Of a stretch of 64,000 bases of DNA, positions 2,700 through 64,000 are shown piece after piece (the first letter of the stretch is position 1; the number at the start of each line of letters is the position of its first letter). Origin of the DNA: Escherichia phage vB_EcoP_SU10; the sequence record NC_027395.1; one strand, given 5' to 3'. Made by a program: the position numbers and the translations under genes. The notes below the pieces were generated by a model. That model had not been told where the DNA came from, searched no databases, and saw nothing but the letters and a program-made list of their open reading frames with translations.

Positions 2700-5600
2700 A
2701 TGGCGCTGTATCCAATAAAGTCACTAGGTGCTGTAGGCGTTATCGCTGACCAAGCTCCGACAGACTTAGCTCCTAATGCTTTCACTAATGCTATAAATGC
2801 TCGATTTGTTGAGCAGAGAGTATTTAAGACGGGGGGCAATGCCCCTCTTTCTTATGTAGATGAAGATAAGGATTTAACCCCTCTGTCTTTCGTTTCTATG
2901 CCTTTCGATTATTATAGCGCAGGTAATAGCTTTCTTGTTGTAGGTACTAATAAGAAGTTATATAAACTGACAGATGAAAGCTTGACTGATATTAGCCGTA
3001 AGGTTGCTACAGTCACTAAGAAGGCTTCTGCCTCAATTAAGATTTATCCAGTTGTTTCTCAGATCGTTCCTAAAGAATCAACTATCTCAATGAACTTCAA
3101 TCAGACCAAGAATCTAGAGGTTTCTCTTCTCCCTGCTGATGCTAACAATACCAATCTTATTTGGGAGGTTAGTAACTCATCCTATGGAAGTATTACGGTA
3201 GACCCTAGTGACTCTAAACTTGCTACTCTAACATCTTTTGAGAAAGAGGGTAATCTTGTAGTAACTATCTCTACTGCCAATGAATCCGTAGTGGCTCAGA
3301 TTGCTGTTAATATCATCGATGGTGATTCAGGCATCTTCTTGAGTCAAGATACTGTTACAATTCGTAAAGGAGGGACTACTACTCTCACGGCTGTTACTGG
3401 TAAAACTCCTGTAACTTGGTCCAGCAATAATGCTTCTATTGTATCCGTAACCCCTAACGCCAACTCTTTAACTGCTGTCATTACAGCGAACGGAGAAGGT
3501 AATGTAACAATCACTGCTGATAACGGGACTAAGACTGCTTCTTGTGAGATTGTTTCTATCCCTCAGATTGATAGTATCTCTTTAAGCCAGTCAGATGTTA
3601 CTGTGAGTAGAGGTTCTCAGTATATTTTAACTGCCACCCTTTCTCCTGCTAACGCCCCTAATCAAAATATTACTTGGACCTCTTCTAACCCAAATATTGC
3701 AACAGTATCAGGGACTAGCACACAAGGGACGATCAACGCTCTGCTTGCTGGTTTTACTGAGATTACAGCTACCACTGAAGAAGGTAACAGAGTTGCTGTC
3801 TGTACTGTACGTGTGGATTTAGCTGGAAGGACAATGAGAACAAGTGCTATGGCATTTGCCGCTCCTGTGTCAGAGTCAGTAGAAACTCAAGAGGAAGAAG
3901 TAGTAACTCCTCCTGAAAGTGAAGAGACGGTTTATTTTGCTGAGCCTACATCCGGTATTGATACGTCAGGGATGTATGAAGGTAACAACTTCTATGACTA
4001 CTCTAACGTGAATGATATTGAAGGTTTTGCAAGAGCTTCTTTACTGGCAACCCCTTTGTCATCTGTAACCTTAGATATTGTCAGCGCTTCTCTTGATGTT
4101 GGTGAAGAGATTGTCATTACAGCCACAGCTTCTCCAGAAGGTGAGTACTCTTATCAGTGGTCTGTTGATAAAACTGGTTATGTTTCTACAACTTCAGTTA
4201 CTGGTAAATCTATCAAACTGGTTGCTCTTCGTAAAGGAGAGATTAACGTAACATGTACTGTCAGTCAGATGACTCAGAAAGATTACGATGCTTTTGATGA
4301 CTATCCTTGGTATCACGCTGTTATCTCTAACTGTGCAGTTGCTACAACTCACTATGAAACTCCTCAGGTAAAAGAATTCGAATCAGAATACTTTGTAGAC
4401 CTTCCGGGGTGGGGTGAGCAAACAGTTGTTGATAACGATGGAAACCCTTCAGTCAAGAAGTTTAACTGGAAATGTGAAAGAGTAAGATCTTTTAACAACC
4501 GTCTTTTTGCTCTGAATATGAGAGAAGCTAATGCTTCTGGTGTTACCACTAACTATCCGCTTCGTCTTCGTTGGTCTAACTTTGCCAATGAGAACAAGGC
4601 TCCTACACTGTGGGATGACTTTGCCTATGATCGAGTTGTGTCTTCGGACTTAGCTTCTAACATCGTAGGGCAGACTCAGGCTCTAGAGAATGGGTATGCT
4701 GGTTACATTGACTTAGCAGATTCTAATGGTAGCTTGATTGATATCCTACCTCTTAAGGATTACTTGTTCGTTTATACAGAGTTTGAAACGTATATTGGTT
4801 CTCCGACTAATAACACGTACCAACCTCTAATGTTCAAGAAGCTCTTTAACGACTCTGGTATCCTTGCTCCCGAGTGTGTGGTTGAAGTAGAAGGTAGTCA
4901 CTTCGTAGTTACTCAGAACGATGTAATCTTACACAATGGTGCAACCAAGAAATCAATTGCATCTAACCGTGTTAAGAATATGTTGATTAATGAGGTGTGT
5001 CTGGTTAACCCTCTAGCAACTCGAGTACACTTGCATCAGGATAAGAAAGAAGTTTGGGTTCTGTACGTAGGTCCGGGAGAACCAAAAGAAAGCTTCGCTT
5101 GTACTAAAGCTGCTGTATGGAATTATGAGTTTGATACTTGGTCTTTCCGTACTATTCCATATGCTCAGTGTATCGGTCTTGTTGATCCTCCTGTTTTAGA
5201 AAGAGGTCCAATCTGGTCTGACTTCCAAGAAATCACTTGGGATGACCCATCTATTAAAGAACTCGTTTGGAGAAAGGATGCAACAAACTTTAGACAGAGG
5301 GTTACGATAGTAGGTTCATTCTTGAAGGGATTCTATCAAGTGGATGTAGGTGCTCTTGATTATTTCTATGACAGGCTAAACGATGTTGTTATAGAGAAGC
5401 CTCTGGAAATGAGGTTGGAGAGGACTGGTATAGATTTTGATAATGTGACTAATGAGTGGAATCAGAAGCATATTAACAGGTTCCGGCCTCAGACAACCGG
5501 TTCAGGTACTTACATATTTGAAGCTGGTGGTAGTCAATTCTCAAATGAATATGGACACCCACACACATCGAAGACTTATACAATTGGTGTTGACAGGCAT

Positions 5601-61179: not shown

Positions 61180-61545
61180 CTATGGATTTACACATTGCCC
61201 TAAACCGGATGCTATTTCGTTCATAGATTCATCAAAGAGTGTTAACGATGAGCGCATCAAGTGATCGATCGTGATTTGTTTACCAGTGGTTTCATTCACC
61301 AACAGAATAGTTTTATCATATGATTGTACATGATCGAAATCGTTTACATGTAAAATAATAACTTTAGGTGACTTTTTACCAGTTTCATAGTCTTCTATAA
61401 GATAGGTACACTGTAAGCCGTCAATCGTAGCAGGGGAAAACGTTGCAGCCTTTACGCTACCCATAGATGACAACAGGACACCTAACAGAAGAACGACCAG
61501 AAAGAAGCCTACGAACACTTTTACCACAAATTTGATAATACCCAT
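61180..61545 (-). CDS. secreted/membrane protein
   Basis: N-terminal hydrophobic leader FVGFFLVVLLLGVLL. Confidence 0.4.
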   Translation of the reverse strand: MGIIKFVVKVFVGFFLVVLLLGVLLSSMGSVKAATFSPATIDGLQCTYLIEDYETGKKSPKVIILHVNDFDHVQSYDKTILLVNETTGKQITIDHLMRSSLTLFDESMNEIASGLGQCVNP

Positions 61546-61920: not shown

Positions 61921-62122
61921 AATGATTAACTAGTGCCTGATAATCGTCAGATGATAACTCACCGCCTAAATAGGCAACGGTTATGCGTGCTTTGTATTCT
62001 GACAAACTGCATAGCGCGGAAGCGGATAACCTGCTTTCGCCATAACATCCTAGCACTTCAACGATACAACCGTTTAAAGATACTGATTTATTAATCACGA
62101 TATGGTTAGCCATTAATATCAT
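61892..62122 (-). CDS. hypothetical early protein
   Basis: 76-aa ORF. Confidence 0.3.
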   Translation of the reverse strand: MILMANHIVINKSVSLNGCIVEVLGCYGESRLSASALCSLSEYKARITVAYLGGELSSDDYQALVNHYEDWKRYGK

Positions 62123-62369
62123 CCTTAATTAGCCCATGATTGAGCAGGTTAGCCAGTGATAAGCCACCGTCAAAATAAACAGAACGAAAATCAGCGCGGG
62201 TAATTTCAAGGCCAGCAAACTTCAACCAGTTTTTGGCTGATTGAAAATCCATTTTGCAAAAAGTAATGATAGGAACAGTAAGCTGACCATCGAGCGTATT
62301 AAACATGATAGCGGTATCGCCAATAAAACAAGAAAAGCCACTAGATAATCTAATTTCTTTAATAGCCAT
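62106..62369 (-). CDS. hypothetical early protein
   Basis: 87-aa ORF. Confidence 0.35.
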   Translation of the reverse strand: MAIKEIRLSSGFSCFIGDTAIMFNTLDGQLTVPIITFCKMDFQSAKNWLKFAGLEITRADFRSVYFDGGLSLANLLNHGLIKDDING

Positions 62370-62405: not shown

Positions 62406-63278
62406 TCACTTACTAGCCTTAATACAGTTGGCTAAATTAACGTGAACGGTATAAACAGCATTATCCGCGTTATTGTAAACAGTCGTGGCGATCATCGACT
62501 CATTGATCGGGCCATAGCTAACAAGGTTAGTAACGGCTTTAACGTCTTCATAACGTTGTACAGTGCCGAAAGTCACCATATCCGCATCGTTATCAGTACG
62601 CTTAAGCACTAAATCACTGTTAGGCTGATTATCTAACGTTTTAGATTGAAAGAGAACGCCATCATTAGTAACGTTGCTAAATTTCATCTTTAGCACGATA
62701 TTATTGCCGTCACTATCCGCACCGTTGCAAATCATCCAACCCTTATTGATGGAACTAGCGAAAACATCAGCGGCATCAGTTGCAGGAGTAGGACTAGCGA
62801 TAGCCTTATCAGAAAGAGATGTGACCAGTGCACTAACACCAATAGCTGCAACCAGTGCATAACTTGCCAGATTAACAGACTTCATAATCTTACTTGCAAC
62901 AGTAGGCTTGATTGGCTGTTTCTTGTTTTTCTTATTCCATGCTTCAACCATGACAGACAAGCGGGATAATTCAGCTTTCACATCGCGGCATGACTCAGGC
63001 CAATCCTTCTGATTCCAGCTATCTAAATTTGCTTGAATGTAGCAATTAATAGCGTCCTGCATATCGGTAAAACCGTTCTCTTTGAACGTGCTTTCATCTT
63101 CACACTGTAAAGCGTTCGCAGTAGAGTTAATGATCAAGCAAGCCAGCATTACAGAGTTTTTGAATCCTTTACGTGCACTTTCGTTTTCCATCCACGCATC
63201 AGGACTACCAACGGTTAAGCCTAAAGAGGAAAGGCTTTCGTTTGCTTTGTTCAAGTGGTTAATTGCTACTTTAGACAT
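62406..63278 (-). CDS. early membrane protein
   Basis: 290 aa, central TM helix; sigma70-like promoter ~50 nt upstream. Confidence 0.45.
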   Translation of the reverse strand: MSKVAINHLNKANESLSSLGLTVGSPDAWMENESARKGFKNSVMLACLIINSTANALQCEDESTFKENGFTDMQDAINCYIQANLDSWNQKDWPESCRDVKAELSRLSVMVEAWNKKNKKQPIKPTVASKIMKSVNLASYALVAAIGVSALVTSLSDKAIASPTPATDAADVFASSINKGWMICNGADSDGNNIVLKMKFSNVTNDGVLFQSKTLDNQPNSDLVLKRTDNDADMVTFGTVQRYEDVKAVTNLVSYGPINESMIATTVYNNADNAVYTVHVNLANCIKASK

Positions 63279-63322
63279 TTGATATTCCTTCTGGTTGATG
63301 AAAACTACAAACTACACTCGCA

Positions 63323-63350
63323 ACTATATATTAAAGGAAAAGGCTGTCAA
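63323..63350 (-). promoter_or_regulatory. sigma70-type early promoter
   Basis: - strand TTGACA, 16 nt, TATAGT. Confidence 0.5.
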
Positions 63351-64000
63351 CCATTTATTTTCTAACTTTCTTGCATCCTACTGAAAACTAAAGGAATTTA
63401 ATTTACTAAACTTTCTATACTCAGGGTATCAGCTTACTAGCTATTGTTACTTTATAACACCAATTCTACGGGCAGCAGACCAACAGACCAGGACACGGGG
63501 AGCATACAACCGCAGGACAGACCACGGGGAAATATAGCAAGATAGTGCGGTAATAATATACCACTTAAATAATTGTATAACTCAAACATCAAAGACGTTC
63601 GTACTTCGTACTCACAAAGGCACGCTGAAAAAGAAAGTAATAAAAGAAACAATTAAAAGAAATACAATCATCCACTTAATTAATACATATATCATTATTG
63701 CACTCATAATCATTACTATTGAAACTATTATCAACGTAACTATGGAGAGCTGAACGGTAACAATACGGTATTATTAGACCTGTTATTATCACGCCTTAAC
63801 AGAGTATAGCCTTTCTCTCACTCTTTAAAGGGGTACTAAATAAACGGGTAGTTAATGAATAGGATGGTATACACGGGGAAATAACTACGGGGAGTAGGCA
63901 CGGGGAAAGGTGGAACGTTGAAAGGGAAGGTAAAGGCATTGCCAATAACCCTTTTTTAAATGAGGACTCCCCTTTTTTAGGAAACACGCGGGAAGCGGCT

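Follow-up and report, generated by a model that had tools for sequence, protein, structure and literature searches.

Co-oriented A[CT]GGG repeat arrays at the right genome end of a phiEco32-like phage: candidate recognition sites for genome-end processing

Close to the right-hand edge of the genome of Escherichia phage vB_EcoP_SU10 (NC_027395.1), a short repeat recurs in non-coding DNA, always in the same orientation, and the locus raises the question of what such a repeat is for and whether it has anything to do with the genome's end. The whole 64,000-nucleotide stretch that was analysed is referred to here as the window. A first-pass annotation, made from the letters of the window, had described five ACGGGGA(A/G) copies in two clusters and compared them with the short-repeat arrays found near phage termini, packaging sites or origins. 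The present analysis goes beyond that description in placing the edge of the window at the genome end and the second cluster inside the direct terminal repeat (DTR), and in recognizing that the motif is degenerate. Based on position, orientation, spacing and conservation, the repeats are proposed, with moderate confidence, to be cis-acting sites at the concatemer junction that serve genome-end recognition and processing during packaging, probably via the small terminase.

The mapped genome end and its repeats

Over its last 2 kb the window matches E. coli podophages of the phiEco32-like type (Gordonclarkvirinae, Kuravirus group), in a total of 91 records; this part is 98% identical to Bas91 and CHD5UKE1 and 90% identical to phiEco32. 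The GC skew of the window switches sign near 18 kb, which agrees with the published gene layout, in which late genes run rightward and are followed by leftward early and middle genes starting at the right end (PMC4281155).

The final 193 bp of the window (63808-64000) align end to end with the exact 193-bp DTRs of phiEco32 and YF01, starting with the same word and ending with the same word, and are more than 90% identical to the 193-bp repeat of the phiEco32 group with the same boundaries. In the records of phiEco32 and YF01 this repeat occurs exactly at both ends, and the YF01 record annotates its 193 bp as a direct terminal repeat; the NC-B record holds an exact repeat of 250 bp, and the window holds the right-end copy only. 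Moreover, the CHD5UKE1 record terminates at the equivalent of 63807, the base before the DTR, and the window terminates on the last DTR base. Experimental mapping of the 193-bp ends has been described for three relatives: restriction, primer walking and subcloning were used for phiEco32, full-length nanopore reads for YF01 and the analysis of read starts for Paul (PMC9965538). Because the DTR of the window matches those mapped in relatives, the repeats sit at a mapped physical terminus, and by the same match the edge of the window is taken to be the physical right end of the genome. The DTR boundaries have a short word in common, T/AGCC in Bas91 and GCT/AG[CG] in the other lineages (the slash marking the boundary). 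Conservation at DTR positions ~130-170 had already been described (PMC9965538), and a near-copy of the motif in inverted orientation, GGGGAGT on the - strand, lies in the most conserved core of the DTR (Table 1). When folded as single-stranded DNA, the DTR was no more stable than its shuffles (z 0.2), and no hairpin is claimed for it.

All five ACGGGGAR copies are indeed present, at 63495, 63524, 63873, 63887 and 63900, and all five lie on the + strand. In the window as a whole this word is found 7 times, as compared with 1.47 expected, a count that was reached in 0/100 shuffles. The broader form ACGGG[GT]A has 10 copies in the 64 kb (8 on +, 2 on -), six of which, all +, fall within 63495-63907; with the rate in the rest of the window as background, the Poisson probability of at least 6 copies in 560 nt is ~4e-14. 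The sixth copy in the junction is ACGGGTAG at 63844, and ACGGGCAG at 63468 is a degenerate copy. The motif is therefore the degenerate A[CT]GGG[GT]A, present in more than five copies. In the part of the junction that lies inside the window, A[CT]GGG occurs 7 times on the + strand and 0 times on the - strand.

The copies form a left array (L), situated 284-340 bp to the left of the DTR boundary, and an in-repeat array (D), which begins 36 bp inside the left boundary of the DTR, and the arrays bracket both DTR boundaries. The L sites are interleaved with CAGACCA (63476, 63484 and 63518) and CAGGACA (63489 and 63513), repeats that are present as the first-pass annotation described them. The D sites occupy DTR positions 37, 66, 80 and 93, with spacings of 29, 14 and 13, and this array also has a one-mismatch copy at 63828, AAGGGGTA, and, near 63864, a decayed one.

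Table 1. Features of the junction region inside the window (positions are those of the window).
Feature	Position	Strand	Sequence or content	Basis or remark
Early promoter, strong, leftward, sigma-70-type	63323..63350	-	TTGACA-16-TATAGT, 11/12 matches	conserved in relatives
Left array (L)	63468..63531	+	ACGGGCAG 63468, ACGGGGAG 63495, ACGGGGAA 63524	spacing 27, 29 bp
Near-invariant block	63506..63574	+	site L3 to first box CCACTTAAAT (63561-63570)	alignment with relatives
A-rich tract	63624..63669	+	GCTGAAAAAGAAAG...	13-nt period in 63629-63662
Second invariant block	63670..63729	+	starts with second box CCACTTAATT (63672-63681)	alignment
Direct terminal repeat (DTR), right-end copy, 193 bp	63808..64000	.	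first word AGCCTTTC, last word GCGGCT	
In-repeat array (D)	63844..63907	+	ACGGGTAG 63844, ACGGGGAA 63873, ACGGGGAG 63887, ACGGGGAA 63900	
Most conserved DTR core	63952..63985	+	TTTTTTAAATGAGGACTCCCCTTTTTTAGGAAAC	alignments with relatives

The comparison with terminus-type short-repeat arrays is thus borne out, as the D cluster lies inside the DTR and the L cluster ~300 bp to its left. The repeats had also been called unlike CRISPR, and this holds as well: they are 7-8 nt in length, follow one another at irregular steps of 13-29 bp and belong to no long repeat family, as compared with the repeats of at least 23 nt and the regular spacers of CRISPR. Tandem Repeats Finder (TRF) did not detect the arrays of the window, since in them only the 7-nt core recurs and the spacers are unrelated. 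A scan of 63200-64000 against Rfam returned a chance-level match alone (E 0.92).

The inner edge of the non-coding junction region is formed by the leftward promoter at 63350-63323, and the repeats lie beyond this last early promoter, where they had been placed. The AT-rich stretch reported earlier is likewise real, with 63624-63735 reaching 72-82% A+T. Its A-rich tract contains the word GCTGAAAAAGAAA, which is invariant across all lineages, and is bracketed by a pair of boxes, CCACTTAA[AT]T, that lie 111 bp apart and have no other copies on either strand of the 64 kb. The tract is itself periodic (63629-63662; in MLP3, L012 2786-2848), with a 12-13-nt unit such as AAAAGAAACAAAT, which is the same step as that of the arrays.

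Conservation, motif flavours and natural mosaics

The comparative set consisted of 11 junctions mapped in full and 20 typed genomes. Each of the 11 junctions (~1.1 kb) contains 11-15 A[CT]GGG on the + strand and 0-1 on the - strand, as compared with 3-8 and 0-4, respectively, in the flanking 4-5 kb. The D sites at +36, +65 and +92 from the left DTR boundary have identical offsets in 11/11 junctions, and the D site at +79 likewise has a fixed offset. These offsets hold despite the differing length of the DTR, which is ~205 bp in EP335 and 4E8 and 249-250 bp in TH34, MLP3, Bas88 and NC-B. The distance from the L array to the DTR is variable and ranges from 254 to 366 bp across junctions. Beyond the window, a third array (R) is seen 130-400 bp to the right of the DTR in Bas91, which is 98% identical to the window, and in all other relatives. 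In Bas91, the closest full junction, the R array reads ACGGGGA, ATGGGGG, ACGGGTT, ATGGGGT and ACGGGTT, and several of these copies have a GCCTTTA prefix.

The sites also keep a register of ~14/28 bp. Among nearest-neighbour spacings, 71/123 are 12-16 or 26-31 bp and 2/123 are 9-11 or 20-22 bp, counts that come from related genomes and so are not independent of one another; the register holds in all three lineages. The motif cores are invariant in 9 Kuravirus genomes, and the strand bias and fixed offsets span three lineages and at least three named genera. In NJ01, MN05 and XT32, the sequence upstream of L1 and between L1 and L2 has been replaced or is unalignable, and the ACGGG cores are kept. 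The first-pass annotation had named two outcomes that would speak against a terminus-type array, genome ends mapping elsewhere and repeats absent from relatives, and neither was found: in relatives the ends are mapped here, and no relative examined lacks the repeats. In the same three genomes, NJ01, MN05 and XT32, the 290-aa right-end protein (62406-63278, -) is represented by a 163-aa version and a small extra ORF; the 163-aa NJ01-type version matches the C-terminal half of the 290-aa protein only, and the junction repeats to the right are unaffected.

IMG/VR yielded almost no new relatives when searched at the protein level or with a 15-mer from the repeat core, 28/31 of the 15-mer matches being chance. 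The phages 7-11, GAP52 and Privateer were considered as comparators and set aside as not comparable, having other repeated words and unmapped ends. GAP52 (Grimontviridae; L020 443-631) has four perfect DnaA boxes (TTATCCACA) and an inverted one upstream of a terminase-like gene, and 7-11 (Grimontviridae; L018 910-995) has GT[AG]TGGATAG-like direct repeats, also upstream of a terminase-like gene.

Across the group the motif comes in three flavours. Type A, that of the window lineage, is ACGGGGA; type B, found in MLP3, Bas88, TH34, SU7, NC-B, ECBP2 and HC-25922, is ATGGGTA; and type C, found in EP335, KBNP1711 and 4E8, is a mixture of ACGGGG[N] forms. At each of the orthologous sites L2, L3 and D2, types A and B differ by an identical pair of changes, C to T at position 2 and G to T at position 6. 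Such parallel change at separate sites, in phages whose hosts are all E. coli, points to a reader encoded by the phage rather than by the host. The boxes that bracket the A-rich tract also change in concert between lineages, with both copies alike each time: the window has CCACTT, type B has CCAGTC[AT]A and EP335 has CCAATC[AT]AAT. Array and box words alike are most simply explained as being read by phage-encoded proteins. The promoter word of the phage sigma factor, TAATGTATA, occurs at chance level in the window and is absent from the junction. Some relatives possess TAATGTAT or TATAATGTA in the junction, and these words are not conserved. In types B and C, TATAATGTA, which is like the phage sigma-factor word tAATGTATA, lies directly to the right of the L array and faces the genome end (L012 2670-2700, L013 2665-2695 and L011 2665-2690), within a 68-bp block that the window lineage is without.

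Repeats of this kind could conceivably be left over, without a sequence-specific function, from local duplication or slippage in non-coding DNA. The L array does in part resemble a duplicated ~29-bp unit (the 18-nt family D1, 72-78% identity), and type B genomes carry tandem ATGGGTAGG copies in a 41-bp insertion. Such an explanation is nevertheless highly improbable, as the cores are conserved where their flanks diverge or are replaced, and the same two substitutions have arisen in parallel at orthologous sites that are not adjacent. Moreover, a strict strand bias and fixed offsets are seen over three lineages and at least three named genera, and arrays with unrelated spacers to which TRF is blind are not simple duplications.

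The flavours also allow one to ask which part of the genome the arrays travel with. In 18/20 genomes, residues 33-36 of the small terminase read NPSN where the D array is of the ACGGGG type and EPST where it is of the ATGGGT type. This covariation between terminase residues and motif was not retained, as it is broken by two natural mosaics. In IME267, L and D arrays of the window type are found alongside a type B R array and an EPST small terminase; the crossover of this phage lies inside the conserved DTR core, and over more than 6 kb its right arm resembles that of the window. Similarly, 4E8 combines a mixed-type, EP335-type repeat with a type B R array and an EPST small terminase. In IME267 (L042 1-620 and L045), a right arm, an L array and most of a DTR of the window type are joined to a left end of the SU7/MLP3 type, and the mosaic locus of 4E8 is L041 1-720. 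The two mosaics indicate that array flavour follows physical linkage and that, were the small terminase the reader, it would have to accept either flavour. As judged from these genomes, L and D are inherited together with the right arm, and R together with the left arm and the terminase. Alternatively, the right arm could encode the reader of L and D.

Candidate readers, a packaging model and its rivals

The leading candidate for the reader is a putative small terminase, the phi32_6-like protein of 157 aa, which is encoded ~1.5 kb to the right of the DTR and adjoins the large terminase gene. This protein belongs to no Pfam or NCBIfam family. The two best PDB matches of its profile are both small terminases, that of PaP3 (6w7t, E 0.008) and 7joq, and a direct comparison with the PaP3 small terminase by hhalign gave a probability of 82% (E 1e-5). 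The match covers the oligomerisation core only (residues ~70-130), and an N-terminal helix-turn-helix of the PaP3 type is not recognisable in the protein. Its N-terminal part carries instead a basic segment rich in Gly, Arg and Lys, the AT-hook-like GRP[KR]GSRGK. This segment (residues 45-54; Bas91 L003 5806-6279) is invariant from Kuravirus to 7-11 and GAP52. The PaP3 small terminase is a nonamer with sequence-specific DNA binding (PMC7672466), and by analogy a ring of the nonamer type would suit many equally spaced, co-oriented sites.

Among the neighbouring products, neither the 121-, 290-, 87-, 92-, 76- and 54-aa proteins nor the terminase-like protein belong to a Pfam or NCBIfam family. 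Several records name three products "terminase" (121 aa), "polymerase" (87 aa) and "ABC transporter" (210 aa), after PHROG families that are private to this phage group; the genes so named (window 61180-61545, -, and 62106-62369, -; Bas91 L003 5117-5749) have no Pfam, NCBIfam or PDB support, and the three product names look like propagated misannotations. The 54-aa protein is a Cys/His-rich ORF (MWKIKLIIKQFKCDHEYY...WRCSKCGK...; Bas91 L003 4572-4736) that lies ~60 bp to the right of the DTR, is found in all three lineages and has no family match. In the records of Bas91 and phiEco32 another frame is annotated there (e.g., 4615-4827), one that runs through the R array.

The preferred model can be set out along the junction of a replicated concatemer, where the order of elements would be the L array, a box, the A-tract, the second box, the DTR boundary, the D array, the conserved core, the second boundary and the R array. 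The co-oriented A[CT]GGG sites would be bound, in a register of 13-14 bp, by a phage protein that forms oligomers, most likely the small terminase. Once bound, it would mark the junction on replicated concatemers and position nuclease nicking at both DTR boundaries, and strand-displacement synthesis would then generate a full DTR on both ends of each packaged genome, as in the standard model of the T7 type. We infer from the layout and its conservation that a protein binds the sites, that the small terminase is the binder and that the binding serves packaging. Points against the model are the restriction of the terminase match to the oligomerisation core, the variable distance of the L array from the DTR, and the core at 63952-63985, which is more conserved than the arrays and could be the true recognition site.

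A second role that has been considered for such a region is that of a replication origin, in which the arrays would be the iterons of a phage initiator and the unwinding element would be the A-rich tract. It is in keeping with this idea that direct repeats (L and D) flank a 110-bp tract of 72-82% A+T and that this tract is framed by two boxes, CCACTTAA[AT]T, which lie 111 bp from each other and change in concert. In T7, moreover, the promoters adjoining the genome ends are named phiOL and phiOR, and both are associated with secondary origins. However, no initiator-like gene was found beside the region, the neighbouring products being without a Pfam, NCBIfam or PDB match, and a 7-nt motif with unrelated spacers is shorter than typical iterons (~17-22 bp). 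The spacings of 13-16 or 26-31 bp are not multiples of the helical phase either, and a D array at fixed DTR offsets, with an R array on the far side, forms a layout tied to the ends and not to the AT tract. An origin is accordingly regarded as distinctly unlikely.

A third possibility is some other end-specific function on the infecting linear DNA, such as control of entry, protection of the ends, priming near the ends or regulation of the early promoters that face inward at both ends. Each mature end would indeed bear two arrays (L and D on the right, D and R on the left) just outside inward-facing promoters, and the L and D flavour of IME267 travels with the right-arm early genes. The conserved 54-aa Cys/His-rich ORF, ~60 bp to the right of the DTR, would be a second candidate reader for such a function. 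The T7 arrays share the CAGACCA words of the L array (AGACCAGACC), and on the complementary strand these words include TGGTC, a recognition word of the T7 primase. Set against this, the candidate ORF has no family match, and an end-specific function makes no prediction that would separate it, on sequence alone, from the packaging model. It is considered rather unlikely, and the packaging model, with the small terminase as probable reader, remains the preferred explanation.

The junction is of interest in part because the recognition of junctions and the duplication of DTRs in short-DTR phages are much less understood than cos or headful packaging. The phiEco32 group offers countable sites at fixed distances from mapped ends, in three flavours and with natural recombinants (IME267 and 4E8). 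The two recombinants already pair one array flavour with the terminase of a different one, and all of these features together make direct tests feasible. There is also a practical side, in that the exact ends and the DTR should be respected in the assembly and annotation of these coliphages, which are therapeutic candidates, since many records of the group are circularly permuted or lack the second DTR copy.

Comparison with T7 and other packaging sites

The DTR of the phiEco32 group and its conserved region were already known. No mention of A[CT]GGG arrays was found in published descriptions of the phiEco32-like repeat; the primary phiEco32 papers lay outside the scope of this search, and an earlier mention is possible. 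By analogy, the arrays are best filed as junction repeat arrays of short-DTR phages, comparable to the multi-copy sites of terminases. Sites of the latter kind, bound by small terminases, include lambda cosB (R1-R3), the pacL and pacR boxes of SPP1 and the hexamer clusters of P1 pac. The recognition sites of SPP1 and P22 have been summarised (PMC7672466). The likeness is that several short repeated sites lie to one or both sides of the point of cleavage, near the terminase genes, for an oligomeric small terminase, which is putative in the present case. By contrast, lambda, SPP1 and P1 make cohesive ends or package by the headful, without short DTRs, and binding has been demonstrated there and is predicted here. 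The phiEco32 group also has a shorter motif in a larger number of copies, at least 11 per junction. At the left ends of PaP3, LUZ24 and tf-like phages, CTTAAGA recurs at a spacing of 11 bp, a layout different from that of the phiEco32 group.

The closest parallel is found in T7, whose ends carry CCTAAAG and its one-off variants in three arrays of a single orientation, mostly 13 bp apart. These arrays lie to the left of the 160-bp terminal repeat (~39621-39700), inside its left half (positions 17-100) and to its right (175-340), and were reportedly named SRL and SRR by Dunn and Studier in 1983. As in the phiEco32 group, a one-directional 7-nt motif forms arrays on both sides of a short DTR (160 bp in T7, 193 bp here) and within its left part, its copies follow one another at ~13 bp with occasional double steps, and the arrays are situated between the genome end and inward-facing early promoters. 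The position of phiOR in T7 furthermore resembles that of TATAATGTA in the type B and C relatives. The two systems differ in the motif itself (CCTAAAG as opposed to A[CT]GGG[GT]A), the junction sequences show no similarity, and the terminases are not detectably related. In addition, the spacers of T7 are also repeated, making true 13-bp tandem repeats that TRF detects, whereas here the core alone recurs. The relation to T7 is one of analogy and not of homology or common descent. To our knowledge, the function of the T7 repeats has never been settled, and the analogy therefore supplies no mechanism.

It is possible, though on balance unlikely, that unrelated short-DTR phages, T7 and the phiEco32 group, share a common junction architecture not formulated before, in which three one-directional arrays of a lineage-specific 7-nt motif, one within the DTR and one on either side of it, keep a register of 13-14 bp. 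Should this be so, a common physical mechanism is conceivable, for example one in which junction DNA lies on a terminase ring or filament and a step of 13-14 bp measures the positions of the boundary nicks. The flavours and mosaics of the phiEco32 group would then provide a genetic handle on the long-unexplained repeats of T7.
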